DNA from: Patescibacteria group bacterium
Lineage (GTDB): Bacteria; Patescibacteriota; Patescibacteriia; UBA9934
DNA length: 63,967 nt
NCBI GenBank assembly: GCA_041661425.1
Contig: JBAZUI010000005.1
Coordinates: 1-63,967 of the forward strand
Direction: 5' to 3'
Below, in pieces: positions 293 to 63,357 of this stretch. Every line of letters begins with the position of its first letter. Positions within the stretch are counted from its first letter, which is position 1. The notes under the pieces were generated by a model, which had not been told where the DNA came from, did not search any database, and saw nothing but the letters and a program-made list of their open reading frames with translations. Both the position numbers and the translations under genes were made by a program.

Positions 293-471
293 TGATGATG
301 TTTATTTCGTTCAAAATTACTGCATCTACAGGCTCACGATTTGCGTTCCTCGCTCGCCGTACATTTTGGTACGGCTCGCTCCGGTACGCATTGTTCGCCT
401 GTATCTACAGCAATTTTGGACGAAATAGATCCATCGACTGATTTTCTATCAGTGGTTTCTAATAAAATCAG

Positions 472-592
472 AGGACTTTCACCTTTAGATGCAGAGCGAG
501 GAGAAAACCGAGCAACGAGGAGCCGTACACAGACGTACGGTGACGACGTGCGCAGGTTTTCGACAAAGCTATGCGCTAAAGGTGGAAGTCCT
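472..592 (+). repeat. Structured intergenic repeat, family A, copy in the 23S-5S spacer
   Basis: Outer arms AGGACTTTCACCTTTA / TAAAGGTGGAAGTCCT are complementary. The conserved core TGCAGAGCGAGGAGAAAACCGAGCAACGAGGAGCC ... GGTGACGACGTGCGCAGGTTTTCGACAAAGCTATGCGC is shared with copies at 4665-4783, 51047-51170 and 61004-61156. Confidence 0.85.
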
Positions 593-608
593 AAAGAATC
601 GTTATATT

Positions 609-3237: not shown

Positions 3238-3256
3238 CTGTTAAAATGAGGTGATT

Positions 3257-4516
3257 ATGCAAGTCATTGCCGATCTTCATGTCCATTCTCGATTTTCTCG
3301 TGCTTGTTCCAAGGAATTGACGCTCGAGAATAATGCTTTGTGGTGCTCAAAAAAAGGCGTTGGGATTTTAGGGACCGGTGACTTTACGCATCCGGCGTGG
3401 TTTAAGGAAATAAAAGAAGAGCTCATCGAGGACGAACCGGGATTATTCCGGCTCAAATCTGGCCATTATCCTGATATTCGTTTTATCCTTTCGACCGAGG
3501 TCTCGCAGATTTATAAGAAGAATGGAAAGACGCGTCGCATCCACAATATTGTTTTTGCGCCTTCGCTCGACGTGGTTGAGAAGATTCACGCCTGGCTCGA
3601 TGATCATCACTTCAATCGTAAAGCAGATGGTCGACCGATTCTTGGCATCGATTCAGAAGTGTTGTTAAAAGCACTCAAAGAAATCGACAAACGTATTTAT
3701 CTCATCCCTGCGCACGCATGGACGCCGTGGTTTTCGGTATTTGGATCATATTCTGGATTTGATTCACTCGAGGAATGCTTTGGTGACATGACAAAAGAAA
3801 TATTTGCGATTGAAACCGGGCTCTCAAGCGATCCGCTCATGAATCGTTCACTTTCGCGTCTCGATCACATCGCACTCATTTCAAATTCCGACGCGCATAG
3901 TCCGCGTAACTTTGGACGTGAAGCAAATGTGTTTGAGATGAAAAAGAAATCATATGATGAATTATTTTCGATTTTAAAATCACGCGATCCGAAAAAGTTT
4001 TTGTCTACGATTGAGTTTTATCCAGAGGAAGGGAAGTATCATGCGGATGGTCATGCGGACTGTGAATTTTGGTGTGAGCCGGAAGAAACGATTCGTCTGG
4101 GCGGTATTTGTCCGAAGTGCAAAAAGCAATTGACCGTTGGCGTGCTCGCACGAGTGAAAAAACTAGCGGATCGTGAACGTCTAAAAATCATGCCGAAGAA
4201 TCAGATCCCGTTCAAATCCATTGTTCCTCTTCAAGAGGTCATTGCCAAGTCTCTTGGGGTTGTGGGGACCGGATCAAAAAAAGTTCAGGCGCAATATGAA
4301 AAGCTGCTTGAACTTGGAAATGAATTTTTTATTCTTCTGGACGCGGATTTGAAGATGATTGGAGAATTTTCTCCCCCAGCTGTTGTTGAATCTATCCGAC
4401 GTATGCGAGCAGGAAAGATGCATATTCGTCCCGGATATGATGGCGTGTATGGGCAGGTAGAATTTTATTTCGAAAACGACCCGCTACCAATTGCGAAACA
4501 AACCTCACTTCTCTAA
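3257..4516 (+). CDS. PHP-family phosphoesterase with Zn-ribbon (COG1379 / EndoQ-like)
   Basis: N-terminal ADLHVHSRFSRA PHP motif, GTGDFTHP, and a CPKC..Zn-ribbon-like CxxC. GAGGTG Shine-Dalgarno 5 nt before ATG 3257. Confidence 0.7.
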   Translation: MQVIADLHVHSRFSRACSKELTLENNALWCSKKGVGILGTGDFTHPAWFKEIKEELIEDEPGLFRLKSGHYPDIRFILSTEVSQIYKKNGKTRRIHNIVFAPSLDVVEKIHAWLDDHHFNRKADGRPILGIDSEVLLKALKEIDKRIYLIPAHAWTPWFSVFGSYSGFDSLEECFGDMTKEIFAIETGLSSDPLMNRSLSRLDHIALISNSDAHSPRNFGREANVFEMKKKSYDELFSILKSRDPKKFLSTIEFYPEEGKYHADGHADCEFWCEPEETIRLGGICPKCKKQLTVGVLARVKKLADRERLKIMPKNQIPFKSIVPLQEVIAKSLGVVGTGSKKVQAQYEKLLELGNEFFILLDADLKMIGEFSPPAVVESIRRMRAGKMHIRPGYDGVYGQVEFYFENDPLPIAKQTSLL

Positions 4517-4518
4517 CA

Positions 4519-4783
4519 CGAAGGACTTTTGTATTTGAGTGCAGAATGAGAAGAGGCAGAGGCTTTTCGCGAGACGAATACAAAACAAGGAGAAGCTTTA
4601 GATTTAGATGCAGCACGAGGAAAAAACCGAGCAACGAGGAGACGTGTGCAGATTTATTTTCGAAGGACTTTTGTATTTGAGTGCAGAACAAGGAGAAAAC
4701 CGAGTAGCAAGGAGCCGTACATAGATGTACGGTGACGAAGCACGGAGGTTTTCGACAAAGTTATGCGCCAAATACAGAAGTCC
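4519..4783 (+). repeat. Nested/tandem array of family A repeats (two truncated units plus one full unit at 4665-4783)
   Basis: CGAAGGACTTTTGTATTTGAGTGCAGAA occurs at 4519 and 4661 (142-bp period). A left-arm-only copy sits at ~4606-4645. Confidence 0.85.
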
Positions 4784-4794
4784 TTAAATAAAAA

Positions 4795-4840
4795 TCCCCG
4801 CTCCTCCACATTGCATCGCTTGAAGGTGGGCGGGGAAATT
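4795..4840 (-). terminator. GC-rich hairpin plus T-run downstream of the small basic-protein gene
   Basis: Minus strand reads CCCCGCCCACC...GGAGGAGCGGGG followed by ATTTTTATTT. Confidence 0.5.
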
Positions 4841-4841
4841 T

Positions 4842-4958
4842 TTATTTGCGGCGCTTTGCAGCTTTGCGCTTTTTTGCAACGTGCTTCTTGGCTACGTGCT
4901 TCTTTGCGCGCTTCGCTGGTTTACGCTTTGCAACTTTGCGTTTCTTTTTTGCTGGCAT
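4842..4958 (-). CDS. 38-aa lysine/arginine/alanine-rich protein (MPAKKKRKVAKRKPAKRAKKHVAKKHVAKKRKAAKRRK)
   Basis: Not in the ORF track because it is under 60 aa. ATG at 4958 is preceded by GGAGG 9 nt upstream. TAA stop at 4844-4842, with a terminator immediately downstream. Confidence 0.55.
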   Translation of the reverse strand: MPAKKKRKVAKRKPAKRAKKHVAKKHVAKKRKAAKRRK

Positions 4959-5125
4959 ATTAATGGAGCCTCCTTTCTGGCATTACTGCCGTGTCATTTC
5001 TTACGATTCGTCGACCACGAATTTTTTTTGTAAGAAATGCATCATGCATCGATGCGTGATGCAATAGTATTATTATACGTCAATTACAAAACAAAAAAAT
5101 AATTTTACAGAAAGTTATGCACAAG

Positions 5126-5608: not shown

Positions 5609-5613
5609 AGAAT

Positions 5614-5633
5614 TGGTGGACTTGAGGGGATTC
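5614..5633 (-). repeat. Orphan copy of the tRNA-Ala 3' end (T-loop to CCA)
   Basis: TGGTGGACTTGAGGGGATTC is identical to 5991-6010. Confidence 0.95.
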
Positions 5634-5990
5634 AGCTTCAGCTCTCGGCTTGCCGTCGCAAGCCTCGGCCCTGCCTACCGGCAGGCAGACTAGCCACCCG
5701 CCTTCGCAAGGCTTCGGCGGGCAGGCCGCCTACAATGGCGGAGTTTATCCACCGAAGCTCCGATTTATCCGTCGTAGCTTTAGCGAAGACGGAAGGAGCG
5801 AAGGAGGAGCGTTCGAATCCCTTCGCAAGCCAAATGGTTGACTTGCGTCTAATTTAATCAATAAATTTCCACGTATTTTGCTTCAGATACAAGGCATGGG
5901 TGGCAGTCGAGGAAACGTACCCAAATGTACGTTGACGAAAACTGACGGGACCCATAACACAGTAGCTTAACAAAATTCGTGGAAATTTCT
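5634..5990 (-). mobile_element. Insert between tRNA-Ala and its displaced 3' end: family B element (5634-5847) plus a family-A-like hairpin (5863-5988)
   Basis: The family B sequence is shared with 63358-63550 and 40810-40930. It abuts the tRNA fragment through the ...CCGAGAGCTGAAGC end (minus strand). Confidence 0.7.
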
Positions 5991-6067
5991 TGGTGGACTT
6001 GAGGGGATTCGAACCCCTGACCTCCTGCTTGCAAAGCAGGCGCTCTAACCAGCTGAGCTACAAGCCC
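5991..6067 (-). tRNA. tRNA-Ala (anticodon TGC), CCA encoded
   Basis: Manual fold: acceptor GGGCTTG/CAAGTCC, anticodon arm CCTGC-TTTGCAA-GCAGG, T-arm AGGGG-TTCGAAT-CCCCT. Confidence 0.95.
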
Positions 6068-9182: not shown

Positions 9183-10168
9183 GTTCGAAATTTCTTTTTG
9201 AGCGCTCGAAGCGCCGAGCGATAAATATCTTCCGCGCTCATATGATAGTGGACAGCGAGTTCTTCGGGTGTTCCCGATTGCCCGAAAACATCACAAAGAC
9301 CGATGCGTTCAATGGGAACCGGATCATTCTGACTCAATAATTCTGCAATTGCTCCCCCCAGGCCTCCGGCAATCTGATGTGATTCCGCCGTCACAATCGC
9401 CCCGCATTTTTTGGCGGCCGCGATGATTGTTTTTTCGTCGAGAGGCTTCACCGATGGGGAATTCACAACCATGGCGCGGATGCCATCCTTTTCCAAGAGG
9501 AGAGCCGCTTGAAGACATTCGTAAACGATCGGCCCCGCCCCAATCAGCGCGACATCGTTTCCCTCAAGAAGAATGGACGCTTTTCCAATCTCAAATGGTG
9601 TGGCGGGAAGAGTAAATAATGGTGTTTCATTTCGTTCGAATCGAAGGTAGACCGGGCCTTCATAATCAATAGCAGCCTTTACTGCTTTCTCTGTTTCAAT
9701 AGCATCGCCTGGAACAAGAACGACCATATTCGGAAGCACGCGCATGAGTGCCAAATCCTCTGTCATTTCATGGGTCGCTCCATCGCCTCCGGCCGAAAGA
9801 CCCGCATGAGAACTAAAGATTTTCGCATCAAGATTTTGCAGGGCGATGGTGGTACGAATTTGTTCCCAGTTTCTTGCGGGCGAGAAGGCGGCAAATGTTT
9901 CCACAACGGGAATTGCTCCGGCAAGGGCAAGACCGGCGCCAATCCCTACCATGGCTTGTTCTGAAACGCCGAATTGGAGAAAACGATCAGGATAGGCCTT
10001 GGCAAAATCAGTCGCACGCACGGATTCGGTCACGTCTGCGCAAAGAACGTAAAGATTTTGATGCCTTTTTCCTGCCTCAAGCAAGCCAAAGCCCGCTCCA
10101 TCACGGGTGGATTTTAGCAAAACGGTTTCGCGGTGTTTCCAACCGCGCTGGAGCGGGGAGGGGCTCAT
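9179..10168 (-). CDS. tkt: Transketolase, C-terminal (pyrimidine-binding) subunit
   Basis: FGVSEQAMVGIGAGLALAG, and a C-terminal transketolase domain. ATG at 10168. Confidence 0.88.
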   Translation of the reverse strand: MSPSPLQRGWKHRETVLLKSTRDGAGFGLLEAGKRHQNLYVLCADVTESVRATDFAKAYPDRFLQFGVSEQAMVGIGAGLALAGAIPVVETFAAFSPARNWEQIRTTIALQNLDAKIFSSHAGLSAGGDGATHEMTEDLALMRVLPNMVVLVPGDAIETEKAVKAAIDYEGPVYLRFERNETPLFTLPATPFEIGKASILLEGNDVALIGAGPIVYECLQAALLLEKDGIRAMVVNSPSVKPLDEKTIIAAAKKCGAIVTAESHQIAGGLGGAIAELLSQNDPVPIERIGLCDVFGQSGTPEELAVHYHMSAEDIYRSALRALKKKFRT

Positions 10169-20789: not shown

Positions 20790-21300
20790 CAAATTCTGAT
20801 CTAGTCATTGCTGCGCCTTACGACACCGCGACTGCAGGCGTCGGGCCATTGGGCCTTCTCGCAATGACGTGGGGGTATCGCGTCAAAACTCACCCTGCCG
20901 TCATTGCGAGCCCGCAGGGCGAAGCAATCCGTTCGAATAGATTGCTTCCCGCCTTCGCTCATTCCGTCTTCGCTAAAGCTACGACGGATAAATCGGAGCT
21001 TCGGACGGGCAGGCGTCGGCCATGAGGCCTTCTCGCAATGACGGCAGAAAGGAAGCTCCGAAGTTATCGTGTTGCTTATGTTGTCATTGCGGGGTGCGGA
21101 TGGGTCTATGCCATCCCTCTGCCATATCGCGAGGAACTTGTGAGAATTCTCGGTGGCGTAGCAACCCATCCCCCTGCCGTCATTGCGAGGAGTGGATGAA
21201 AAATTATTCGGTGACAGAGCGATCCGTGCCCCCTGCCGTCATTGCGAGGAACTGTCTTACATTTTTTGGTGACGAAGCAATCCAGTATTGCCAATGGGTG
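20790..21300. repeat. ~500-bp mosaic of hairpin-forming repeat modules upstream of the FG-GAP gene
   Basis: CGTCATTGCGAG occurs at 20899, 21178 and 21236, with its complement CTCGCAATGACG at 20858 and 21033. GCAGGCGTCGG..GGCCTTCTCGCAATGACG is repeated at 20835 and 21010. A family B/C hairpin module sits at 20964-20992. Confidence 0.8.
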
Positions 21301-21403
21301 TTCTACGTCCCAACGCCGATTCTTTGCTGTGTATAAAGCGAAAAATCTTTGGATTGTCGTGTTATACTTAATCCATCATTTGTCTTATTTGCATTGCAAA
21401 GAA

Positions 21404-22276
21404 ATGAGCAGACCAATTCCTAAATTTAATATCCAAAAAGCATCCATTGCCATGATGTTTGCTTTGTTGTGTTTTATCCCTTTTGCTTTTGCGGCAACAA
21501 CGCACAATCTGTCGCTTTTTGTTGAGTTTACCGGTGAGAGCACAAATAGTAATTATGCGGGGCGGACGGTCGCCCCTGCCGGCGATGTAAACGGTGATGG
21601 TTACAAAGATTTCCTTATTGGAGCGTATGGCAATAATGATGGTGGCGCCAATACAGGTGCGGTGTATCTCATTTACGGTTCAGCAACACCGTTTACCAGC
21701 AGAAACCTTACAAATGACATAAAATTTTGGGGAGAAGCTGTTGGAGATTTGGTCGGCGAAACCTCTATTGCTTCTGCCGGGGACGTGAATGGTGACGGAT
21801 ACGATGATATTCTTATTGGCGCCTATAGAAATGATGATGCCGGAGCAGATGCCGGTGCCGCATATTTGATTTACGGCCAGGCGGCTACGCTTACCAGTGC
21901 TTCGCTTTCAACAGCAATCGAATTTACCGGTGAAGTCGCCGGAGATAAAGCCGGTTATTTCGTTGCCTCAGCAGGGGATGTGAACTTCGATACGTATGAT
22001 GACTTTTTGGTCGGCGCCTATATGAATGACGATGGCCCCGGTGACAATGGCGGTGCCGCCTATCTCATTTACGGTCAGGCTGATCCACTTGTGAGTGCAT
22101 CACTCTCAACCGCCGTGGAGTTTACCGGTGAAGTTGCCGGAGATAACGCTGGTACTAGTGTTTCTTCAGCTGGGGATGTAAATAACGACACATATAGCGA
22201 TATTCTCGTTGGTGCACAATCGAATGACGATGGCCCTGGTGACGATGGCGGCGCGGCTTATCTTATCTATGGCTAG
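21404..22276 (+). CDS. FG-GAP repeat surface protein, N-terminal part (signal peptide plus 4 repeats), ending at an in-frame TAG
   Basis: MSRPIPKFNIQKASIAMMFALLCFIPFAFA signal. Repeats of the form AGDVNGDGYDD..GAAYLIYGQA. The TAG at 22274-22276 replaces the CAG (Q) of the repeat consensus. Confidence 0.8.
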   Translation: MSRPIPKFNIQKASIAMMFALLCFIPFAFAATTHNLSLFVEFTGESTNSNYAGRTVAPAGDVNGDGYKDFLIGAYGNNDGGANTGAVYLIYGSATPFTSRNLTNDIKFWGEAVGDLVGETSIASAGDVNGDGYDDILIGAYRNDDAGADAGAAYLIYGQAATLTSASLSTAIEFTGEVAGDKAGYFVASAGDVNFDTYDDFLVGAYMNDDGPGDNGGAAYLIYGQADPLVSASLSTAVEFTGEVAGDNAGTSVSSAGDVNNDTYSDILVGAQSNDDGPGDDGGAAYLIYG

Positions 22277-22312
22277 GCCGCGCCACTCGTTAGTGCCTCG
22301 CTCTCAACGGCT

Positions 22313-25300
22313 GTGGAATTTACCGGTGAAGTTGCCGGAAACCAGGCCGGGTATTCTGTTTCTTCAGCCGGGGATGTGAATAACGATACTTACGATGACT
22401 TTTTAGTCGGAGCTTTCTTGAATAGTGACGGCGCGAGCATGGCCGGCGCTGTTTATTTAATTTACGGTCAGGCCGCTCCGCTTGTCGCCGCTTCACTTTC
22501 AACTGCGGTGGAGTTTACCGGTGAAGGTGTAATGGACTTTGCAGGCACCAGTGTTTCTTCAGCTGGGGATGTGAATAACGACACATATGATGATTTTCTC
22601 GTTAATGCAGCTTTTAACGATGATGGCCCGGGTAATGATGGAGGAGCGGCTTATCTCATTTACGGTCAGGCCGCGCCACTCGTTAGTGCTTCTCTTTCGA
22701 CCGCAGTTGAGTTCATCGGTGAAGCCGCTATTGATTATGCGGGCTACACGGTTGCCTCGGCCGGGGATGTGAATAACGACACTTATGATGATTTCCTGGT
22801 CGGCGCCTTTATGCATCATGGATATGGTGCCGATTCCGGTTCGGCTTATTTTATTTATGGTCAAGCTAGCGCACTCACGAGCGCGTCACTTTCAACCGCG
22901 GTTAATTTTGGTGGGGAAGCTTATGAGAATACCGCTGTGGCGTCTGATGACTCCGCGGGGAGTGACATTGGCAATGCTGGAGATGTGAACGGCGATGGGT
23001 ATGATGATTTCCTTGTAGTGGCAAATGCGAATGATGACGGTGGCAGCTCATCAGGATCGGCGTATCTTGTGTATGGTCAAGCTTCGCTTCTTGCGGGAAC
23101 ATCATTGTCAAATGCGGTTGAATATATCGGTGAAACGGTGTCGGATATGGTTAATCTTGCGAAAACAGCCGGAGACGTGAATGGTGATGGGTATGATGAT
23201 TTTCTCATCACAGCTTCTTTTAACGATAGCGGTGCTTCAAACGCCGGCGCCGTGTATCTTATTTACGGTCAGGCCGCACCATTGGCTGGTGGATCGCTAT
23301 CAAGTGTGGCAGTGAAATATACTGGGGAAGGTATTAACTACAAAGCCGGTGTCGCTCTTGCATACGGAGATATCAATGGCGATGAATATAGCGATTTTCT
23401 TATTGATGCCGCTTCAAGTAGTGATGGAAAAACCGTTGTTTATCTTGTGTATGGTCAAGCCGCACCATTGGCTGGTGGATCGCTATCAACGGCTGTTGCA
23501 TTAACCGGTGCGCCAGCGGGTGGCTATAATACTCCAGTTTCGGTCGGCGATGTAAACGGAGATGGGTATGATGATATTTTAATCGGAAATTATACTTTAA
23601 ACATTGCCTATCTTCTCTACGGTCAGGCCGCATCATTTGTGAGCGGATCCTATCTCGCATCATCCGTTCAGTTCACACCTGAGGTGAGTGGCGATTTGGC
23701 AGGAATGGACGTTGCGTTGGCGGATATCAACGGCGATGGATATCGCGACATGATTATTTCCGCCACACAAAATGACGATGGCGCAGTGAATGCCGGTGCG
23801 ATTTATCTGATTTATGGACAAGCCGCCGCACTTACAAACGCCTCTCTTTCGACTGCAATAGAATTTATGGGCATAAATGCCACAGCGTCCGGAGCCTCAA
23901 TTGGACTCGCTGATCATTGTGATGTTAATAACGATGGATACGACGATCTTTTTATTGGATTTAAAGATGACAATACCACCTATTACACTCTTGGTCAGGC
24001 AGCTCCCCTTGTTGGTGGATCGCTTTCAACATTCAATACATTCACGGGTGAAGTTGTTGGCGATAGTGCCGGTGATTCTGTCTCTTGTGCCGGTGATGTG
24101 AACGGCGACAATTATAATGAAATAATCATCGGTGCAACAGGAAATGATGATGCTGGATCCGGTGCCGGTGCCGCCTATCTTGGCTATCTCTACGTTGACT
24201 CCGATCACGATGGCATGCCGGGAACAGCCGGCATTCTCGACGGCAATGATTTTGACGATAATGACCCGAGCGTTCAGGATAGTTGGATTTCGAATTTGAG
24301 CGTTGGTGGTTCCTCGGATGGGTGGGGTGGAGTACTCATTCAATTTACCCTCGACGATCCAGACGATGATGATACCGATCAGGCAAGAATTCAATATAGC
24401 CTTGATAACGGCGCAACATGGGCAGATCCAACACTCAGCACATCAGATGCCGATACTACCGCAACCTATGGCGATCCGGATATTAATAATTCCGTTGCGT
24501 ATCAGGTTGGACAATCCGGTGCCTACATTACAACGTCTTCCGGAGCAAATACGATTCAGGTTCGATGGAATTCCGCGGTTGATGTTCCAACAGCGGCAAC
24601 ACAAACCGCAAAAATTCGCGTGACCCCTTATGACGGGACTTCAGAAGGAACCTCAGCAACAAGCTCAGCGTTTTCACTCAATAACCTCGAATCAAATCCC
24701 AGCGATTCCACTCCATCACAACCAAAGGTCACGCCGGAACTGACGGGCCTCGTCATCTCTCAAGGCAATGGCACTACGACCGGTACTCTCACCGAAGGGG
24801 AGTGGACAAGTGTTTCTTGGCTCACACTCGGCTCCGTTCCGTATGTGCTTGTTTCTTATTCAACAGATAATGGATCCACCTGGCAGACGCTTGTTGGTCC
24901 CATCGCAAATCGCAGTAATATCGCCTTTACCATGCCAAGTGATCTGGGTGACACCTTCATGCTCAAGGTTGAAGGAACTGATCTTGCTCTTGTTCTCGAT
25001 ACGCTCACGAGTGATCCAATTATCATCCTCGAACAGACAACCACCCCACCAACATCAACGACTCCGGTCGTAACTCCACCAGCCACGTACGTCCCAGTGG
25101 TTCCGGTTTATGCTCCCTCTCCCATTCTTGGTTACCAGTTCCCAACAACTCCAACGGATACAACATCGGCTACTCAAACTCCCGCAGAAACAGGCGATGA
25201 ACCATCTCCCATCCTTACCTATACCTCTCCCGAGGCCGCATCTCCCGTCACAGGTGAACAGGAAGAGGTGACTGAAGTCTTCCCTGGAGACTATATCAAG

Positions 25301-25684
25301 AGTCCATATTTCCCAACGGTCTATTATGTCACGGAAAACATGGAGCGCCGTCCATTCATGGACGCTCAAACCTACTTTACCTATGAGAGTTCGTTTAATG
25401 CCGTAAAGATCGTTTCTGATGCCACGCTTCCTCTCCTCAATCTTGCCGGTCCCATGCTTCCAAAGCCTTCGACCGTTCTTGTGAAAATCCAGAGTGATCC
25501 AAAGGTCTATCTCGTCTCCACAAATCCCGACAGTGAATATCGCCCCATTCTTCATTGGATCTCGAGCGAGGAATTGGCCGTCAAGATGTACGGCCCTCAA
25601 TGGCCACAATACGTGATTGATATTCCTGTTACTCTATTCGCACGATTTGAGATTGGAGACAAGATTGCCCTGAATCCGAATTGA
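22313..25684 (+). CDS. FG-GAP repeat surface protein, continuation (same frame as 21404-22276; 10 more repeats, T/P-rich linker, C-terminal conserved domain)
   Basis: Frame is continuous from 22277 (AAPLVSASLSTAVEFTGE...). Track ORF start 22313 is a GTG inside the repeat. Confidence 0.85.
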   Translation: MEFTGEVAGNQAGYSVSSAGDVNNDTYDDFLVGAFLNSDGASMAGAVYLIYGQAAPLVAASLSTAVEFTGEGVMDFAGTSVSSAGDVNNDTYDDFLVNAAFNDDGPGNDGGAAYLIYGQAAPLVSASLSTAVEFIGEAAIDYAGYTVASAGDVNNDTYDDFLVGAFMHHGYGADSGSAYFIYGQASALTSASLSTAVNFGGEAYENTAVASDDSAGSDIGNAGDVNGDGYDDFLVVANANDDGGSSSGSAYLVYGQASLLAGTSLSNAVEYIGETVSDMVNLAKTAGDVNGDGYDDFLITASFNDSGASNAGAVYLIYGQAAPLAGGSLSSVAVKYTGEGINYKAGVALAYGDINGDEYSDFLIDAASSSDGKTVVYLVYGQAAPLAGGSLSTAVALTGAPAGGYNTPVSVGDVNGDGYDDILIGNYTLNIAYLLYGQAASFVSGSYLASSVQFTPEVSGDLAGMDVALADINGDGYRDMIISATQNDDGAVNAGAIYLIYGQAAALTNASLSTAIEFMGINATASGASIGLADHCDVNNDGYDDLFIGFKDDNTTYYTLGQAAPLVGGSLSTFNTFTGEVVGDSAGDSVSCAGDVNGDNYNEIIIGATGNDDAGSGAGAAYLGYLYVDSDHDGMPGTAGILDGNDFDDNDPSVQDSWISNLSVGGSSDGWGGVLIQFTLDDPDDDDTDQARIQYSLDNGATWADPTLSTSDADTTATYGDPDINNSVAYQVGQSGAYITTSSGANTIQVRWNSAVDVPTAATQTAKIRVTPYDGTSEGTSATSSAFSLNNLESNPSDSTPSQPKVTPELTGLVISQGNGTTTGTLTEGEWTSVSWLTLGSVPYVLVSYSTDNGSTWQTLVGPIANRSNIAFTMPSDLGDTFMLKVEGTDLALVLDTLTSDPIIILEQTTTPPTSTTPVVTPPATYVPVVPVYAPSPILGYQFPTTPTDTTSATQTPAETGDEPSPILTYTSPEAASPVTGEQEEVTEVFPGDYIKSPYFPTVYYVTENMERRPFMDAQTYFTYESSFNAVKIVSDATLPLLNLAGPMLPKPSTVLVKIQSDPKVYLVSTNPDSEYRPILHWISSEELAVKMYGPQWPQYVIDIPVTLFARFEIGDKIALNPN

Positions 25685-35134: not shown

Positions 35135-35645
35135 GTATTCAGGAAATGCGTAAGCCGAATTCTGTTCCAAATGCCGAAGCATTGGGGCGGTCATCTCTCT
35201 AGGGCGTCTCTTGCGAGACGTCTCATGCGAGCTACCTAATTTGCTCTTGCACCAAGGCAGGTTTGCCACCGCTCCATGTCGCCATGGAGGGAGACTGGTG
35301 GCTCCCGTCAGGGAACCTCCAATCACTTTTCACCTTTTGTTCTACGCAGTGGAACAATCCTGAGTACCGAGCTTGTCGAGGTATCGAAGGGTCACGTTGC
35401 ACCTCTCGACTCGCTTTGCTCGCTCGGGATCGTTTTACTGCGTAAAACTAGTATTGTCTCTGTGGCGCTATCTCTGGGTTTCGGGAAGGGACCGAGGAAC
35501 GGATAAATCCAGTTCCTTGAACTCTTCCTATGTCCCGGTTGCCGTTAGCAACGCCTTTTGATTTTCGATCTTGCGATCGAAAAGGTGTTCGGACTTTCCT
35601 CTTGGGATCCGAAGATTCCAAGTAACCACCACCATTTCCTGAATG
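35135..35645 (-). ncRNA. rnpB: RNase P RNA, bacterial type A, unusually long (~510 nt)
   Basis: On the minus strand: GAGGAAAGTCCGAACAC (P4 5'), GGTGCAAGAGCAAATTAGG, CTAGAGAGATGACCGCCC, and ACAGAATTCGGCTTAC (P4 3'). P1 pairs ATTCAGGAAATG with CATTTCCTGAAT. Confidence 0.9.
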
Positions 35646-40577: not shown

Positions 40578-40788
40578 GGTGCCGGGCAGGATGGCTGTAT
40601 CATTCTTCGTTCCGACTGACGAGGTAGGCTTGAATGGCCTGTTCGCGTCCTCCTACGCTCCTCAGCATTACCTCGGAGCTTCGGAGGACAGCCGTAGCTT
40701 CAGCCGACAAGCAGGGTGGCTTGCCAGCCGTTTTATCCACCGTAACTCTAGTGAAGGTGGAAGCTTCAGCGATAGCTGAAGCGAAGGC
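40578..40788 (-). repeat. Family C tRNA-trailer element (copy 3), following the displaced tRNA-Leu 3' fragment
   Basis: Minus strand begins GCCTTCGCTTCAGCTATCGCTGAAGCTTCCACCTTCACTAGAGTTACGGTGGATAAAACGG..., near-identical to 51257-51470. Confidence 0.85.
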
Positions 40789-40809
40789 TGGTGGGCGGAG
40801 AGGGACTCG
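40789..40809 (-). repeat. Orphan copy of the tRNA-Leu(CAG) 3' end (T-loop to CCA)
   Basis: TGGTGGGCGGAGAGGGACTCG is identical to 40936-40956. Confidence 0.95.
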
Positions 40810-40935
40810 GCCTCGACTCTCGGCTTGCCGTCGCAAGCCTCGGTCTGGCCACCGCCTCGCCATTCTGCCTGCTGGCAGAATATGGCTCCGGCGTTCGAGT
40901 CCATTAACAAGCCAAATGGTTGGCTTGTCGACCCT
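40810..40935 (-). mobile_element. Short family B element inserted between tRNA-Leu(CAG) and its displaced 3' end
   Basis: Shares CTCGGCTTGCCGTCGCAAGCCTCGG and GTTCGAGTCC..ACAAGCCAAATGGTTGGCTTGT with the B copies at 5634 and 63358. Confidence 0.7.
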
Positions 40936-50125: not shown

Positions 50126-50202
50126 GGGTCTGTAGCTCAGTTGGTTAGAGCGCCGAGCTTATACCTCGGTGGTCGATGGTTCGAGTCCATCCAGACCCAC
50201 CA
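50126..50202 (+). tRNA. tRNA-Ile (anticodon TAT), CCA encoded
   Basis: Manual fold: acceptor GGGTCTG/CAGACCC, anticodon arm CCGAG-CTTATAC-CTCGG, T-arm GATGG-TTCGAGT-CCATC. The body resembles bacterial tRNA-Ile. Confidence 0.85.
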
Positions 50203-50365
50203 GCCTTCGCTTCAGCTATCGCTGAAGCTACGGCTGGCAGGCCATCCTGCCTTCCACCTTCACTAAAGTTACGGTGGATAAAACGGCTGGCAGGCCACCC
50301 TGTCAGCTGAAGCGAAGGCTGTCCTCCGAAGCTCCGAGGCAATGCCGAGGAGCGTAGGAGGACAT
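50203..50365 (+). repeat. Family C tRNA-trailer element (copy 1), starting at the nucleotide after CCA
   Basis: GCCTTCGCTTCAGCTATCGCTGAAGC...CCACCTTCACTAAAGTTACGGTGGATAAAACGG...GCTGAAGCGAAGGCTGTCCTCCGAAGCTCCGAGGC...GGAGGAC. Confidence 0.85.
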
Positions 50366-50416
50366 GAACTGAATTAGTTATTGCCGAAGTTTCCGCTTTT
50401 CATCGATACCGCTTCT

Positions 50417-50587
50417 ATGCCCTACATCACCATCTTATTCTTGTTTCTCGCGGTTTCATTCGGCATCTCTGGGATGCGGAATGGTTCTTCGGATGAAAAA
50501 CGGATGGCGATCATCTTCTTGATCGCGGTTATCGGAACGGGCTTTTTAGATTATGTTGCTTGGACTACAATGAGGGGTGCCGTATGA
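50417..50587 (+). CDS. Small membrane protein (2 TM)
   Basis: ATG at 50417 in track ORF 50381-50587; hydrophobic. ATGA overlap with the next ORF. Confidence 0.45.
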   Translation: MPYITILFLFLAVSFGISGMRNGSSDEKRMAIIFLIAVIGTGFLDYVAWTTMRGAV

Positions 50588-51021
50588 GCACTCTTTTTTG
50601 GTATCAGATTTTGATTGCGCTTTTTCAATTTCCTTTTTTTTGGATTGCAGCCGGGACAATTTTTGCTGTTCTCTGTCTTGCGCAAGGCCGGAAAATTAAA
50701 AAAGCTCTTTTTTCATTTCTTTTTACGTTTGCCACGATTGTGACGTGTTGCGGGAGTGCCTGGACCGGTGGAATGCTTGGAAAAGAGAAGATTTTTTCTT
50801 GTCTTGCGGAGGCACAGGGCGTTGCAGAATCGTTAGCGGCCGTGATTGGCTGTGGCATTTTGGAATACGTGATCGCTTGTGCCATTTGGTTTGTTGCTCT
50901 TCTTGTGATGGGTTTTTTCTTATTGCTCTTGAGTCGGGCGGATAATCAATCCTGGATGAGTGATGCATCGGAAGAAACAGAAGCGAATTTCTCGTTTGAC
51001 ACCAAAGGAAAAATACCGTAA
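50584..51021 (+). CDS. Membrane protein (4 predicted TM)
   Basis: ATG 50584 overlaps the upstream stop; strongly hydrophobic segments. Confidence 0.55.
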   Translation: MSTLFWYQILIALFQFPFFWIAAGTIFAVLCLAQGRKIKKALFSFLFTFATIVTCCGSAWTGGMLGKEKIFSCLAEAQGVAESLAAVIGCGILEYVIACAIWFVALLVMGFFLLLLSRADNQSWMSDASEETEANFSFDTKGKIP

Positions 51022-51046: not shown

Positions 51047-51170
51047 GAGAACTTTTCCTTTTGGATGCAGAACAAGGAAGAACCAAGGCTTTTTGTGAGA
51101 CGTACCCAAATGTACGTTGAACAAAAAACGAAGGTTCTGACGAAGCTATGCGCCAAAAGGAGAAGTTCTC
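51047..51170 (+). repeat. Family A structured repeat (variant core), between the membrane-protein gene and tRNA-Val
   Basis: Outer arms GAGAACTTTTCCTTTTGG / CCAAAAGGAGAAGTTCTC. Core GATGCAGAACAAGG...ACGTACCCAAATGTACGT...GACGAAGCTATGCGCC. Confidence 0.8.
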
Positions 51171-51179
51171 TGTAAGTGA

Positions 51180-51256
51180 GGGCGTGTAGCTCAGCTGGTT
51201 AGAGCGTCACATTGACATTGTGAAGGTCAGAGGTTCGAGTCCTCTCACGCCCACCA
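51180..51256 (+). tRNA. tRNA-Val (anticodon GAC), CCA encoded
   Basis: Manual fold: acceptor GGGCGTG/CACGCCC, anticodon arm TCACA-TTGACAT-TGTGA. Confidence 0.93.
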
Positions 51257-51490
51257 GCCTTCGCTTCAGCTATCGCTGAAGCTTCCACCTTCACTAGAGT
51301 TACGGTGGATAAAACGGCTGGCAAGCCATCCTGCTTGTCGGCTGAAGCGAAGGCTGTCCTCCGAAGCTCCGAGGCAACGCCGAGGAGCGTAGGAGGACGC
51401 GAATAGGCCATCAAGTCTGCCATCTCGTCAGTCGGAACGAAGGATGCCCTCCGAAGCCCCGTTTACAGCGGGGCGAAGGAGGGCAGGATT
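51257..51490 (+). repeat. Family C tRNA-trailer element (copy 2), starting at the nucleotide after CCA
   Basis: Same sequence family as 50203-50365 and 40578-40788, with an extended 3' part (CTCGTCAGTCGGAACGAAGGATG...). Confidence 0.85.
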
Positions 51491-52659: not shown

Positions 52660-54141
52660 TTATTTTTCACTTTGATATTTTTTTGCCATCTCCTCGGCTT
52701 GTGGTGGTGTTTGGATTTTTCCAGCAAGTTGCGCATCCCGAATGGCATCGAGGACTTCGCGGTAGAGTGGGCCCGGGGGAATTCCCATTTCCTTCAGATG
52801 GGAGCCAGAAAGAAGTCGTGGCAGACGATCCTTTGAACCTTGAAGCTCGGCCATGCCGATCATGGCTTCGCGAATGCGTTTGGCAATGAGCAATCGTTCA
52901 CGCGCAACTCCATGTTGATCGCGAGCAATGTGGGTGGCGTGCATGAGCATTAAAAGATTCCGTCCGCGATCGGAAAGGAACATGGATTCGAATTTTGATG
53001 GTCGCATGGTTGCAGGATCGATCATTTGAAAATCATGAAGATGCTCCAGGAGCCAGAATAATTCCTCGCAAGAAATATTGGCATGATGATGGCGAGAAAA
53101 TTGATGAAAATAATAATCCTCGCAAATACGAATGGCCGTTGTGGAAACGGAATCCTCCAAGAAAGAGAAAAGCCCGGCTAAAAGAAGGGTTGGGGATGCG
53201 TGTTTCACTCCATAGGAAGCAAGAAAAGTCGGCTTTTCGAGTGTCTGGAGCGTTTGAAATGTTTTTTGGAGAATGGATTCGCGATCATCTTCGAGCATGT
53301 TCTCAAGTGCCGCGAGTTCGGGCATGAACAAGTGGAGCGCTCGGCTTTCAAGCCAAAGACGAATCGTGTGCACGGGATGCGCCACAAATCCAAGCAAAAA
53401 TTCCCGACCGATCATTTCGCGCGGAATCACGTAGATGTGTTTTCCGTGTTCATTGAGTGTGGTGTTCTGCAAGAGATTGAGGTTCGCTTTGAGTGCGCGC
53501 CACGTGAGTTCCTCAATGCCAAAATTCAATTGACTGGCAAGACGAAGCGCCCGAAGCATGCGCGTGGCATCTTCGGCAAAACGTTGTTCCGGAAGAAGCA
53601 CCGCACTGAGCGTTGCGGCAGACAGATCTTGCAAGCCAAGAAAAGGATCAATAAGTCGATGTTCGCGTAATTCATACGCCATGGCGTTCACGGTGAAATC
53701 GCGTCGTGATAAATCTTCTTTAATGGGGAGATCGGCATCAAAACGAACATCCAAGCTTTTTCTTCCAGCAGTGTGAAAGGTGGGGTCAAAGAGATGTTCT
53801 TTTCGCGGAAGGGCGATATCAATGGGCAGACGACTCGTACATCCGTGAGGAACAAATTTGAATGTCCCAAAGCGCCCAACGAATTCCGCAGCGCCATGTT
53901 GCAAAAGCCAACGCTCAAGAATGGGCGGTTCGACATGACGAATCACTAAATCAATATCTTGCGGCAATCGACCGAGCAAAACATCTCGAAGCGTACCGCC
54001 GACCAGAAAAATTTCCGCCTGCGGAAAATGAGAATAAAAAAGCGCGGTCCACGTGAGCCGTGGCTCGCTCTCGAGATAAAGAGAGATCCGCTCCTCCGGA
54101 GGGATGCTCTGCGACGCATAATGCACGAGCATGGTTTCCAT
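52660..54141 (-). CDS. cca: CCA-adding enzyme / poly(A) polymerase-family tRNA nucleotidyltransferase
   Basis: LVGGTLRDVLLGR..DIDLV and RRDFTVNAM motifs. Confidence 0.85.
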   Translation of the reverse strand: METMLVHYASQSIPPEERISLYLESEPRLTWTALFYSHFPQAEIFLVGGTLRDVLLGRLPQDIDLVIRHVEPPILERWLLQHGAAEFVGRFGTFKFVPHGCTSRLPIDIALPRKEHLFDPTFHTAGRKSLDVRFDADLPIKEDLSRRDFTVNAMAYELREHRLIDPFLGLQDLSAATLSAVLLPEQRFAEDATRMLRALRLASQLNFGIEELTWRALKANLNLLQNTTLNEHGKHIYVIPREMIGREFLLGFVAHPVHTIRLWLESRALHLFMPELAALENMLEDDRESILQKTFQTLQTLEKPTFLASYGVKHASPTLLLAGLFSFLEDSVSTTAIRICEDYYFHQFSRHHHANISCEELFWLLEHLHDFQMIDPATMRPSKFESMFLSDRGRNLLMLMHATHIARDQHGVARERLLIAKRIREAMIGMAELQGSKDRLPRLLSGSHLKEMGIPPGPLYREVLDAIRDAQLAGKIQTPPQAEEMAKKYQSEK

Positions 54142-54177: not shown

Positions 54178-55317
54178 TTAGAGGTGATTCAATTGGGAGC
54201 GCACGTGACCAATGACTTTTTTTTCCGCCTGCATGAGCGAGGTGTCGCGGATTTCCAAGCGGGCTTCTTCGCGCGTGCCCGAGGCGGAAAACGGTGCCCC
54301 AAGAAAGAGGGCGTCGTGTGGTCGCTCGGCATGCAAGATCACGTGGACGTGGTGTTCTTTGTTTTCGTAAAAAATCGCCGCAATTTTTGCTTGAGGAGAC
54401 GTGATAATCAATTCATTGATCACGTCTGCGAGAGCGGTTTCATCGGCCCCGGCATTCATAAAATCGGCTTGATTGAGCACGGTCCAGACAAGCTCATGAT
54501 CCTTATCCGATTTGAGACGCGCCAAGGCTCGGCCCCACAATCGAAGCGTCTCCACCGTCCGTGTGCGATAGAGGCTGGCAACGATCTCATCGCGTCGGGC
54601 GCCAAACGACATCAAATCGCTCGCGACTTTGAGTGTTCGTGGGGTTACGTTGGGAGATTTAAAACTTTTTGTTTTATAAATCATGCCCGTGAGGAGCATG
54701 GTCGCGATTTCTTGATCGATGAGCGATGGATCGAGTTGACGCAGAAGATCAAAAATAATTTCCGAAATCGACACCGCATTGACGTCGACGATATTCAGTT
54801 GCCCGAATTGTTCATTCTCAACCGTATGATCAAAATTCACAATCGGCGTTTCAAAAAAGAAGTCTGAATATTTTTTGTAAAGATCACCAAGCTGGGAAAG
54901 ATCGCGCGCGCCCACGGTGAGAATCAAATCATAACGGTAGCCGTCGGCATTCACGATCACATCTTTTTCCTGCCAGGCTCCGGTTTTTGGGGTGAGATGA
55001 ATGTGGATTTCACCATCCACAATATCGTAAGAAAGCTCGTCGATTTTTGTCTCCTTTGCAGTGAGGCGAATGAGAAGCTTACGAATATTCGGGAGATCCC
55101 CACGAACAGAAATTTTTGAAGAAAGGAAGTCAAGCGTTTTTGGAGCTCGACCCCCGATGGTTGCCATTTCAATGGGTTTTTGTAATTTTTCCAAAAGATG
55201 CGCGAGCGCAAAACCGGAAACAAAATCATCGGGATTGGCTGTTTTGGGTAAAACAATCAAGGGACGTTTTGCACGTTCAAGCGCGGAGAGGAGTTGTTCG
55301 TGAAGCTGAAGCGACAT
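54178..55317 (-). CDS. DHH/DHHA1-family (NrnA-like) protein with degenerate motifs
   Basis: NFDHT in place of DHH. Overall size and order resemble NrnA, but the N-terminal Asp/His motifs are not obvious. Confidence 0.55.
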   Translation of the reverse strand: MSLQLHEQLLSALERAKRPLIVLPKTANPDDFVSGFALAHLLEKLQKPIEMATIGGRAPKTLDFLSSKISVRGDLPNIRKLLIRLTAKETKIDELSYDIVDGEIHIHLTPKTGAWQEKDVIVNADGYRYDLILTVGARDLSQLGDLYKKYSDFFFETPIVNFDHTVENEQFGQLNIVDVNAVSISEIIFDLLRQLDPSLIDQEIATMLLTGMIYKTKSFKSPNVTPRTLKVASDLMSFGARRDEIVASLYRTRTVETLRLWGRALARLKSDKDHELVWTVLNQADFMNAGADETALADVINELIITSPQAKIAAIFYENKEHHVHVILHAERPHDALFLGAPFSASGTREEARLEIRDTSLMQAEKKVIGHVRSQLNHL

Positions 55318-59294: not shown

Positions 59295-61001
59295 ATGTCA
59301 ACACGCGACAAAGCGATTCTTGATATTGTCAAAGCGCTTAAAAAAGCGATTGGAAAAGGATATACGGTTCACCCGGATATTTTTGAAGTCCCACCGAATT
59401 CAAAATATGGGGATATCGCTTTCCCGTGTTTTGATTATGCAAAAGGTCTTGGAAGAAATCCGGCGGAGATTGCTTCTGAACTCGCGGCACACATCGGCCC
59501 CACGGATTATATTGAAACCATTACGGCGGCAGGCCCGTACGTGAATTTTACTTTTTCTCTTCCAACGCTCACCGAACAGGTCATAAAAGAAATCTTGAAG
59601 CTCGGCGTCACCTATGGATGCGGAACATCGGGAGAAGGAAAATCAATTCTTGTCGATTATGCGCAACCGAATACGCATAAGGAATTTCATATTGGGCATG
59701 TCCGTAATGCCGTACTTGGGCAATCCATCATCAACATTCTTCGTGCGAATGGATTTCATGTCGTGGGAGCTTCCTATATTGGCGATATCGGTGCCCACGT
59801 CGCGAAAGTGATTTGGGCCATGGAAAAATTCCATCACGGAGAATCTGTGCCAAAAGATCAACGGACAAAATGGTTGGGAGAGGTCTATACGCAAGCGACA
59901 GCTTATGTGGATGCGCACGAGGAGGCAAAAGAAGAAATCGCACTTATCCAAAGAAAACTCGAAGGAAAGGAAGAGCCGTATTATTCCCAGTGGAAAGAAA
60001 CGCGTGAGTGGAGTTTGACGGCGTTTCGTGAAGCATTTAAGGAGTTGCATGTTCATCCGGACGTGTGGTACTTCGAAAGTGACGTCGAAGGGGAAGGAAA
60101 AGAGATTGTGAAGAAAATGCTCATTGATGGATTGGCAAAAAAGAGTCAAGGCGCGGTCGTGATGGATCTTGCGGAAGAGAATTTAGGAATTTTTCTCCTG
60201 CTCAAGTCAGATGGGGGAGCCCTGTACTCAACAAAAGAAATCGCACTTATTCTCCGCAAACAAAAAGATCATCATCCGGACCGTCAGCTCATGGTCGTGG
60301 ATGTGCGACAATCACTCTATTTTCAACAAGTGTTTGCCACACTCCATCGCATGGGATTCACACAACCGTTAACGCATATCGCCTACGATATGGTGACGCT
60401 TCCCGAGGGGGCGATGTCCTCGCGTTCCGGGAATGTGGTGACTTTCGAAGCGTTACGTGACGATCTTGTGAATTCTTTTCAAGAAGAAACCAAAAAACGT
60501 CATCCGGAATGGACAGAGAAAAAGGTTGAGGAAACCGCACGGGCGCTTGCGATTGCCTCGATGATTTTTATGATGCAACGGCAGGATTCGCAAACCATTA
60601 TCACATTTGATCGTGAAGAAGCTCTTTCCTTCGATGGATTTACCGGGCCGTATCTCCTCTATACGGTTGCGCGAATCGCGTCTCTTCGTAAGAACACAAA
60701 AATAAAACCAAAAGGAAAGGCGGGTCTTCTTACCCACGAGAAAGAATATGCGCTTATTCGACACTTGGCGCGCTTCCCCGATGAAGTCCAAAAGGCCGGA
60801 ATCACCTTCCAAATTTCGACGATCGCCCTCTGGGCGTTTGAACTCGCAAAACTTTTTGCAGAATACTATCACGAGGTCCACGTGATCGATGAAGAACAAA
60901 AGGAACGAACCGCCGCACGATTGATGCTCTGCGATGCCGTACGAATCGCGCTCGAAAACGCTCTCCGATTACTTTGCATCGAACCCATCGAAGAAATGTA
61001 G
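59295..61001 (+). CDS. argS: Arginyl-tRNA synthetase
   Basis: EFHIGHVRNAVLG, MSSRSGNVV (MSTRxG-type), and a C-terminal DALR-type anticodon-binding region. Confidence 0.9.
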   Translation: MSTRDKAILDIVKALKKAIGKGYTVHPDIFEVPPNSKYGDIAFPCFDYAKGLGRNPAEIASELAAHIGPTDYIETITAAGPYVNFTFSLPTLTEQVIKEILKLGVTYGCGTSGEGKSILVDYAQPNTHKEFHIGHVRNAVLGQSIINILRANGFHVVGASYIGDIGAHVAKVIWAMEKFHHGESVPKDQRTKWLGEVYTQATAYVDAHEEAKEEIALIQRKLEGKEEPYYSQWKETREWSLTAFREAFKELHVHPDVWYFESDVEGEGKEIVKKMLIDGLAKKSQGAVVMDLAEENLGIFLLLKSDGGALYSTKEIALILRKQKDHHPDRQLMVVDVRQSLYFQQVFATLHRMGFTQPLTHIAYDMVTLPEGAMSSRSGNVVTFEALRDDLVNSFQEETKKRHPEWTEKKVEETARALAIASMIFMMQRQDSQTIITFDREEALSFDGFTGPYLLYTVARIASLRKNTKIKPKGKAGLLTHEKEYALIRHLARFPDEVQKAGITFQISTIALWAFELAKLFAEYYHEVHVIDEEQKERTAARLMLCDAVRIALENALRLLCIEPIEEM

Positions 61002-61003
61002 TC

Positions 61004-61156
61004 GGACCTACACCTTTGGCGCATAACTTTGTCAAAAACCTCCGCACTTCGTCACCGTATCCCGCCCATGGCGGGACCCCGCCAAAGTGAAACGACGGCG
61101 GGGCGGCTCCTCGTTGCTCGGTTTTTTCCTCGTTCTGCATCAAAACGTGTAAGTCC
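61004..61156 (-). repeat. Family A structured repeat (inverted orientation, enlarged apical hairpin), directly after the argS stop
   Basis: The reverse complement reads GATGCAGAACGAGGAAAAAACCGAGCAACGAGGAGCC...GGTGACGAAGTGCGGAGGTTTTTGACAAAGTTATGCGCCAAAGG. Confidence 0.85.
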
Positions 61157-63336: not shown

Positions 63337-63357
63337 TGGTGGACGCCAAGGGATTCG
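63337..63357 (-). repeat. Orphan copy of the tRNA-Val(TAC) 3' end (T-loop to CCA)
   Basis: TGGTGGACGCCAAGGGATTCG is identical to 63599-63619. Confidence 0.95.

Follow-up and report, generated by a model that had tools for sequence, protein, structure and literature searches.

Compensatory changes in a hairpin repeat that is mobile have a precedent in the literature, the REPINs, which are mobilised by RAYTs (REP-associated tyrosine transposases) and whose hairpin is described as folding "in ssDNA or mRNA", i.e. in single-stranded DNA (ssDNA) or in a transcript (Bertels and Rainey 2011, PMC3116915). The subject of the present analysis is a repeat, here called family A, which recurs in a 63,967-nt contig of a Patescibacteria group bacterium (JBAZUI010000005.1, positions 1–63,967, assembly GCA_041661425.1; this whole stretch is referred to as the window). 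Other well-known intergenic repeats of bacteria, such as ERIC/IRU, Correia/NEMIS, RUP and BOX, are confined to a genus or family and have fixed terminal inverted repeats and a fixed target duplication.

Family A resembles the REPINs in being a non-autonomous, extragenic, multi-copy hairpin repeat of ~100 nt with a predicted fold in ssDNA or mRNA, and also in its persistence, its vertical inheritance and the occurrence of tandem and partial copies. A long hairpin with compensatory changes is present in family A as well, but its conserved blocks are internal and are shared across phyla, whereas those of REPINs are the two terminal REPs, found in the lineage that carries the cognate RAYT. The termini of family A differ by lineage, and its arms are not short palindromic REP units. 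Moreover, no RAYT was found near any copy, either in the 8-kb blocks around the copies or among the 26 window ORFs (open reading frames) scanned, and a strict polarity with respect to the neighbouring gene is not a described property of REPINs. With palindromic repeats that resemble miniature inverted-repeat transposable elements (MITEs), family A shares the form of an imperfect palindrome of 100–150 bp in transcribed intergenic DNA that would give RNA hairpins, a location between cistrons or after stop codons, and a presence that varies between strains. It differs from them in that most copies lack target duplications, in its covarying interior stems, and in a distribution that spans Patescibacteria, Clostridia and other metagenome-assembled genomes (MAGs). 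Compared with a classical MITE, a derivative of a DDE insertion sequence, the termini of family A are conserved within a lineage (TAGGACTT or CCTGACG), no parent insertion sequence was seen, and the 76 copies analysed lack, for the most part, a target-site duplication of fixed length. We favour, with about even confidence, the interpretation of family A as a mobile, non-autonomous hairpin (foldback) element of the general REPIN/palindromic-MITE kind, the single-stranded fold of which is under selection. This is because the copies are many, are gained and lost, and may be truncated or nested, because their stems covary and one strand folds better irrespective of context, and because no mobility gene lies nearby.

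All copies share one fold, a rod-shaped hairpin of ~120–130 nt. The outer stem comprises ~15–20 bp with UUUGG/CCAAA at its inner end, and its termini are typical of the lineage, being TAGGACTT...AAGTCCTA in Patescibacteria and CCTGACG...CGTCAGG in Clostridia. A reading of the window from its letters alone (the sequence-only reading) had proposed that the outermost arms differ completely between copies while staying complementary within each; the compensatory pairing is borne out, but the complete difference is not, as patescibacterial copies share AGRACTTWY...RWAAGTYCT, and only the following core of 3–6 bp, which precedes TTTGG, varies with compensation. In clostridial copies CTGACG is likewise followed by a variable part and ATTTGG. 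The next block is a conserved box in which UUUGG-A-UGCAGAAC pairs with GUUAUGCGCC-AAA, and which contains a bulged A, a UGCA/UGCG segment with an invariant U.G pair, a G/A mismatch and AAC/GUU. The box adjoins a purine-rich spacer (GAGGA on the 5' side, GACRAA on the 3' side) that is both conserved and unpaired, as the sequence-only reading had it. Inward of the spacer lie a variable stem of 6–7 bp, a second variable stem (poorly aligned by MAFFT), a loop of the GAG/UGA type, and an apex stem with conserved GUAY...RUAC (GUAC...GUAC). The facing segments GAAAACC/GGTTTTC covary to GAAGAACC/GGTTCTG and to GAAAAAACC/GGTTTTTG. A small peptide initiated at the conserved AUG of GGAUGCAG was considered and rejected, since several copies have AUG UAG or no AUG.

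Covariation was measured on a MAFFT alignment of 39 copies that had not been fitted to any structure, with 500 shuffles and slid partners as controls. Standard pairs occupied 96.0% of 1,463 pair cells, compared with 76.4% in the shuffles and 33–39% with slid partners. Two-sided changes occurred at 26 of the 38 pairs (297 cells, vs 84 in shuffles), in agreement with the compensatory stems first postulated, and not one of the 500 shuffles matched the observed percentage of pairing, the number of two-sided changes or the covariation score. These changes keep the stems paired even among the copies of a single genome. Family A thus has a covariation-supported structure and conserved loops, as Rfam families do, yet it matches none of them: no Rfam 15 family reached its gathering score on the window elements, on nine loci from Clostridia MAGs or on 18 further loci, and a permissive scan of 4500–4800 returned only matches with E≥5.9 (the best being RAGATH-28, 12.7 bits, E=5.9). 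A likeness of the apex to domain 5 of group II introns is at chance level (12.1 bits, E=7.8).

The fold belongs to one strand. Wobble pairs are concentrated on the strand chosen in the sequence-only reading, with U.G in 37 of 39 copies at columns 25–118 and in 16 of 39 at columns 14–128, and G.U in 12 of 39 at columns 62–81; cells of the A.C type are rare in the alignment. With RNA parameters the element's own strand, defined as the better-folding one, has a mean energy of –62.4 vs –51.4 kcal/mol and is the better strand in 95 of 100 copies, and with DNA parameters the corresponding values are –34.3 vs –30.1 kcal/mol and 93 of 100. This asymmetry is equally large in gene-adjacent antisense copies and in the remaining copies, and as it is the same whichever strand is transcribed, it is a property of the element itself. 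The covarying stems, the conserved loops and the single better strand uphold the original preference for a selected RNA or ssDNA structure over a plain MITE with fixed terminal repeats.

Within the window, family A is represented by three intact copies, one apex-inserted, one diverged and one degenerate copy, and two left-arm fragments, at a copy density of ~1 per 10 kb. At up to 3 mismatches there are three occurrences of the right-arm motif GGTTTTCGACAAAGYTATGCGC and three of the left-arm motif, where dinucleotide-preserving shuffles give an expectation of 0, and a scan of the window with covariance model R1 (derived as described below), with filters off, recovered every copy listed here. 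The positions originally assigned to the copies proved correct, with agreement between motif counts, covariance model and folds (z=–10 to –12 for the best three). Each full copy folds as one long imperfect hairpin on the strand originally given, and for the four better copies the complementary strand folds worse.

The first intact copy, at 472–592 (+) in the 23S–5S spacer (106.8 bits at 471–594 (+); minimum free energy (MFE) –66.1 kcal/mol, z=–12.0), has the same sense as the rRNA operon and ends, on its 3' side, 18 nt before the 5S rRNA (611–718). The second, at 4664–4784 (+) (110 bits at 4663–4786 (+); MFE –56.9 kcal/mol, z=–11.8 for 4665–4783), lies between the converging ORF (open reading frame) 3251–4516 (+) and a small basic minus-strand ORF with a terminator hairpin. 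The latter ORF (4792–4960, –), of ~38 codons, is very basic (MPAKKKRKVAKRK...), is followed by the terminator-like hairpin and converges on the copy. The third intact copy, at 51047–51170 (+) (125.8 bits at 51047–51171 (+); MFE –58.4 kcal/mol, z=–10.1), begins 25 nt past ORF 50560–51021 and ends 9 nt upstream of tRNA-Val(GAC) (51180–51256, +), to which it is sense. The apex-inserted copy, at 61004–61156 (–) (54.4 bits at 61009–61151 (–); MFE –66.9 kcal/mol, z=–5.1 for 61006–61154), carries a GC-rich insertion of 46 nt with two hairpins at its apex; its 3' end lies 2 nt past the stop codon (61001) of argS (59295–61001, +), to which it is antisense, and its 5' end points toward the bactofilin gene (61160–61582). 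The identity of argS was confirmed by a match to TIGR00456.

The less complete copies had also been recognised or suspected from the letters, and all proved real. The diverged copy at 5864–5988 (+) belongs to a subfamily with termini AAATTTC...GAAATTT (47 bits; MFE –41.1 kcal/mol, z=–4.6 for 5863–5988). A distance of 2 nt separates its 3' end from that of tRNA-Ala (5991–6067, –), to which the copy is antisense, and the copy lies inside a 356-nt segment that has a 21-nt direct repeat of the 3' end of the tRNA at either border (5613–5633 and 5990–6010). A GCCGTAC/GTACGGC hairpin at 356–375, taken as the sign of a second degenerate copy in the rRNA spacer, falls within a copy at 311–418 (–) (32.8 bits, E=2e-6), which is on the opposite strand to that at 472–592 and has its 3' end toward the 3' end of the 23S rRNA (1–292; 3' end at ~292); a 19-nt repeat matches 356–374 to 522–540. 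The fragments suspected within 4519–4664 are two left arms. One (4522–4590, +; repeat families D13 and D19) consists of the left arm only, is internally deleted or partial, and begins 5 nt past the stop of ORF 3251–4516; the 5' strand of its outer stem is 90–92% identical to that of full copy 4664 (90% for D13 at 4522–4552, 92% for D19). The other (4591–4652, +; D12, 79%) is a left arm with GATGCAGCACGAGGAAAAAACCGAGCAACGAGGAG, one mismatch from the left-arm motif, and without a right arm. Identity of these fragments (4522–4552/4590 and 4591–4652) to the left arms of full copies ranges over 68–92% (D12, D13, D19), and the stretch 4519–4664 folds no better than shuffles (z=–0.05). The statement that copies sit right after stop codons holds only for the copy at 61004, which is antisense to argS, and for the fragment at 4522, not for the others, and the ORF called EndoQ-like has only a match to family TIGR00375 that is below the cut-off.

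The placement of family A relative to genes has a pronounced polarity, which was counted over 108 copies with the stop codon required to lie within 12 nt. In 60 of these an ORF of 100 or more codons on the opposite strand stops at most 12 nt from the element's 3' end, while the mirror case, a sense ORF of this length stopping at the element's 5' end, was found in 7. In low-GC loci alone (mainly patescibacterial, n=61) the numbers are 34 and 6, and for ORFs of 150 or more codons, over all loci, they are 53 and 0. At the ends of genes, polarity comes close to being absolute. In many copies the stop codon is part of the outermost base pairs of the element, as TGA in CCTGACG (20 copies) or TAG in TAGGAC (9 copies). 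At the 3' ends of tRNA-Ala, tRNA-Val and 23S rRNA, the element's 3' end is directed toward the 3' end of the gene, as at ORF stops. The case of tRNA-Val is from a related contig (L034, JBAYHI01, from another Patescibacteria group bacterium), which is syntenic with 50.4–57.5 kb of the window at ~70% identity, a relationship that itself assigns the window to a patescibacterium, and in which a sister copy with the same AAATTTC...GAAATTT termini as that at 5864–5988 lies 1–4 nt from the tRNA 3' end.

In a second recurrent layout the 3' end of the element lies just upstream of a co-directional gene. This applies to the copies at 51047 (9 nt before tRNA-Val) and 472 (18 nt before 5S rRNA), to a copy outside the window (L069) that is 21 nt before a 23S rRNA and sense to it, and to 8 low-GC copies adjacent only to a start, which are 5–40 nt from the start of a coding gene; no low-GC copy was found with only its 5' end beside a start codon. 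As the same physical end is thus turned toward the nearest gene both upstream and downstream, the rule is a mirror rule at the level of DNA and not of the transcript. In one contig (L073, 3946–5477), ftsZ is bracketed by two inverted copies, each with its 3' end toward the gene; one is flush with the stop codon, and the other, which has a 5-nt direct repeat (GAACA), precedes the start by 12 nt.

Orientation by replication strand was considered and is not supported within the window, where GC skew is uniformly positive and orientations are mixed. Four elements are on the plus and two on the minus strand, and they track the neighbouring gene (argS is plus and its element minus, tRNA-Ala is minus and its element plus). 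At other loci GC skew is confounded with gene strand.

Outside the window, the exact pattern GACRAAGYTATGCGCYAAA was scanned in one genome per species (596 Gb), which yielded at least 100 stretches where, by our own estimate, ~35 would be expected by chance; most of these stretches hold a whole element, not the pattern alone. An alignment of 39 diverse copies (A2) was used to build covariance model R1, and a renewed search of the matched loci with it gave 137 hits, corresponding to at least 103 non-overlapping elements, some of which lack the search motif. Intact copies score 107–126 bits on the forward strand and 26–61 bits on the reverse strand. Among the matches listed, hosts with repeated matches are Patescibacteria (Uhrbacteria, Magasanikbacteria, Parcubacteria, Campbellbacteria, Saccharibacteria and unclassified bins) and several gut "Clostridia" MAGs, while single MAGs carry, according to their record titles, the labels Christensenella, Acutalibacteraceae, Lachnospiraceae, delta-proteobacterium and Gammaproteobacteria. 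No element match was found in GenBank phages and PLSDB plasmids, and all matches of the right- and left-arm patterns to IMG/VR viral contigs were chance matches in coding DNA, none of them confirmed by the model. Full-text literature searches (with consensus strings, and for structured RNA, repeats and MITEs of Patescibacteria and for integron/attC) returned no description of the element.

In the Clostridia MAGs, long non-coding stretches with other repeated modules lie 5' of the element (L021 560–1796, L008 1–167 and others). These modules, which include the motif GTTTGGCTGAGCGGCGCGTAA..CCGTCTCC, are common to loci and genomes at 70–91% identity over 400–560 nt and have no Rfam match.

Comparisons between relatives show that sites can be filled or empty, so mobility must enter any explanation. 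Between two genomes of ~90% identity, the place of the element within one intergenic region differs, each place being empty in the other genome, and one of these polymorphic filled sites is flanked on both sides by TTATTTT. The argS site, filled in the window, is empty in a relative whose ArgS is 78% identical; there, 20 unrelated bases separate the corresponding stop codon from the hairpin that follows it in both, and the locus has no R1 match. In the syntenic relative of the window, a copy lies between the orthologues of window ORFs 52660–54141 and 54178–55317, where the window has 36 nt, and at tRNA-Val the element is downstream of the gene in the relative and upstream in the window. At one orthologous site in two Clostridia MAGs, copies of different subfamilies are found, with 64% identity as opposed to 83–89% in the flanks. 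In a pair of fusA-like ORFs, one ends ...NKQ-TAA without an element and the other ...NKS-TGA with an element at its end, the last codon and the stop being supplied by the element where it is present. Truncated, nested and tandem copies exist. Among 76 copies, five have flanking direct repeats of 5–7 nt (5, 5, 5, 5 and 7 nt), while 0.8 would be expected. The possibility that the outer stem is derived from the target, raised by one empty site that keeps 8 nt resembling the outer arm, was not adopted, as the termini are conserved within lineages.

If family A is a mobile hairpin, its fold would matter since the element is handled as a single strand, most likely as ssDNA during copying or insertion. 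The protein that copies or inserts it would be encoded elsewhere in the genome and would read the conserved box, the spacer and the apex, and only copies with an intact fold would propagate or persist. The polarity may reflect a directional insertion step or strong selection on the strand that enters the neighbouring transcript. In a transcript of either orientation, the outer stem of 17–20 bp would give a long hairpin adjoining stop codons and the ends of mature RNAs, and this may secondarily serve processing or stabilisation. Of the three roles proposed for family A in the sequence-only reading (a REP-like element, a protein-binding site or an mRNA 3' stabiliser), the REP-like element comes closest.

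Several points weigh against this interpretation. No transposase, RAYT, recombinase or reverse transcriptase was found beside any copy in the 8-kb blocks, and none of the 26 window ORFs scanned is a transposase, recombinase or reverse transcriptase, the genes tested being housekeeping genes. Most copies (60 of 76) lack a flanking direct repeat of even 3 nt, and we know of no directional insertion that recognises gene ends among elements of this kind. The loops are conserved across phyla although the stems are entirely different, which is unlike the known lineage-specific REP and MITE families. Finally, in four patescibacterial pairs the shared copies are more conserved than their mostly coding flanks (element vs flanks: 95–99 vs 84–92% in summary; by pair 96.8 vs 91–92%, 96.8 vs 78–92%, 99.2 vs 92.5–99.2%, and 95.2 vs 67–84%). 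This slower change of resident copies, as judged from sequence identity, points to constraint in place rather than to neutral junk. Internal cross-phylum blocks with lineage-specific termini, slowly evolving resident copies and a near-absolute polarity go beyond the REPIN precedent.

The genes next to the element are likewise those of the core genome. An all-against-all clustering of 1,468 flanking ORFs, in which an autonomous copy or an associated gene was sought, gave only housekeeping families adjoining elements: EF-Tu/EF-G (tuf, fusA), S10 (rpsJ), L2 (rplB), FtsX, SodA, MetK and PrfB, and rplE/rpsN/rplF are also recurrent neighbours. Genes enclosed by paired copies (ftsZ, rpsD/rpsK, hisS, tpiA, gpmI, rpsL/rpsG) keep their conserved operon order. 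At one locus (L031) two copies lie within rplF-rpsH-rpsN-rplE, antisense to the operon, one of them at a distance of 1–2 nt from the preceding rplE stop and of 10 nt from the following rpsN start.

Such locations suggest that family A might instead be a module for transcript punctuation selected by the host, i.e. a processing site (e.g. for a double-strand-specific RNase) or a 3'-end protector, with loops that bind a conserved RNA-binding protein and with mobility being secondary. We regard this as possible, if rather doubtful. Elements flush with stop codons inside essential operons (rplE-rpsN-rpsH-rplF, tuf-rpsJ) are necessarily transcribed, others are 1–21 nt from the mature ends of tRNA, 5S and 23S rRNA, and distant lineages carry an element at like sites, after rpsJ or tuf; the conservation of orthologous copies relative to their flanks, and that of the loops across phyla while the stems covary, are also as expected for such a module. 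However, after genes it is the worse-folding strand that is transcribed, with C.A mismatches in place of G.U pairs and pyrimidine in place of purine loops, and the asymmetry of the fold does not flip with context. For the same reason a role as mRNA 3' stabiliser fits poorly, the better-folding strand being antisense to the gene with the 60 vs 7 bias described above. A rule acting on RNA would not yield the mirror-image arrangement seen in the DNA, and filled and empty sites between relatives as well as decayed copies are at odds with it, as is the lack of a U-tract after the hairpin on either strand. An intrinsic (Rho-independent) terminator was rejected on the latter ground, no consistent T-run following the hairpin on either strand in the flanks of 88 copies, and such a role is also unlikely because several copies are in the interior of operons through which transcription must continue.

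The arrangement of the folded strand also recalls integron attC sites, in which the AAC/GTT triplet is essential and the folded strand is antisense to the ORF. Like attC sites (including the ~125-bp VCRs), family A is an imperfect hairpin of similar size in which structure rather than sequence is conserved, with a short box ending in AAC/GTT beside an unpaired spacer, a second stem and a variable terminal structure, and it is found immediately 3' of ORFs. Family A could accordingly be imagined as an ssDNA recombination site for a tyrosine recombinase, as are attC or the folded CTX attP, with the AAC/GUU box and spacer as putative binding and cleavage site and the folded strand as the "bottom" strand, antisense to the preceding gene. 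The box GCAGAAC/GUUAUGC with 5–6 nt of unpaired spacer on each side would suit this, as would genes bracketed by two copies with the same end inward (ftsZ, above). The right-arm complement GGCGCATAAC also has GCGCATAA in common with what we take to be the XerC arm of E. coli dif. We nevertheless consider a recombination site unlikely. The box does not fit the attC consensus RYYYAAC/GTTRRRY, its AAC/GUU is not invariant but covaries to AGC/GCU in 4 of 39 copies (columns 31–112), and a long stem of 15–20 extra paired bases lies outside it. No cassette array was found, the genes between copies (ribosomal proteins, ftsZ, hisS, tpiA, gpmI) being core housekeeping genes in conserved operons, and no integrase was seen near any copy.

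Very unlikely, in our view, is a family of small non-coding RNA genes or of retro-copied RNA, in which the better-folding strand would be functional, expressed e.g. from the copies in rRNA and tRNA operons, and antisense copies would arise via a cDNA intermediate or act as regulators: the strand-specific fold with G.U pairs and conserved purine loops, the sense copies within stable-RNA transcription units and the existence of right-arm-only copies (in a search that was anchored on the right arm) would agree with it. Against it, the element has neither a terminator nor a match in Rfam, and none of the nearby genes seen encodes a reverse transcriptase; a promoter of its own for the better-folding strand has to be rejected at tight intercistronic sites, where the next start codon is only 10–30 nt away from the element's 5' end.

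Some further features of the window deserve mention. A second, GC-rich repeat family (5613–5850, 20949–21004, 40634–40935, 50198–50370, 51256–51461, 63167–63357 and 63429–63619) adjoins tRNA 3' ends and carries duplicates of them, with the 21-nt TTGGTGGACTTGAGGGGATTC at 5613 and 5990 and TGGTGGGCGGAGAGGGACTCG at 40789 and 40936; in this pattern it is similar to miniature integrative elements that attach at the 3' ends of tRNA genes. A match to RNase P RNA at 35135–35642 (–) extends over 508 nt, compared with 367 positions of the model, and thus has one or more large insertions, and this region gave no significant match to the family A model. A tRNA-Ile with anticodon UAU (50126–50202, +) represents an uncommon way for bacteria to read AUA. 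At 21500–24200 (+), tandem coding repeats of 198 nt (GDVNGDGYDD type) form part of a large ORF, and one of them has TAG for CAG (at ~22274), which splits it into ORFs 21242–22276 and 22313–25684.

A practical consequence is that the repeat breaks metagenome assemblies at element sites, as contigs end inside copies. This was seen in several MAGs (L040, L048, L068, L090), and a 9.7-kb Logan contig from an independent assembly, with an identical ArgS (L107, SRR18595301), ends 41 nt past the argS stop, inside the element (9642–9683).

Patescibacteria have tiny, tightly packed genomes, from which almost no mobile repeats or regulatory RNAs have been described, yet family A is frequent in the window and, in relatives, is found within operons for ribosomal proteins and rRNA. 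Family A combines features in an unusual way: loops shared across phyla, stems that covary within genomes, a 60-vs-7 polarity at gene ends and an evolution slower than that of neighbouring genes. We tentatively suggest that it might be a previously undescribed structured single-stranded module of Patescibacteria and Firmicutes, with box, spacer and apex read by a widely conserved host or mobile protein and with directional placement at gene boundaries, i.e. behind stop codons and the 3' ends of tRNA and rRNA, and ahead of the 5' ends of stable RNAs. Whichever explanation is right, with the covariance model and the polarity rule the partner protein can be sought through phyletic co-occurrence, and the question of RNA versus ssDNA can be approached. 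If the suggestion is true, family A would represent either a new mechanism of transposition or recombination that senses polarity, or a portable signal of "gene punctuation" in streamlined genomes.

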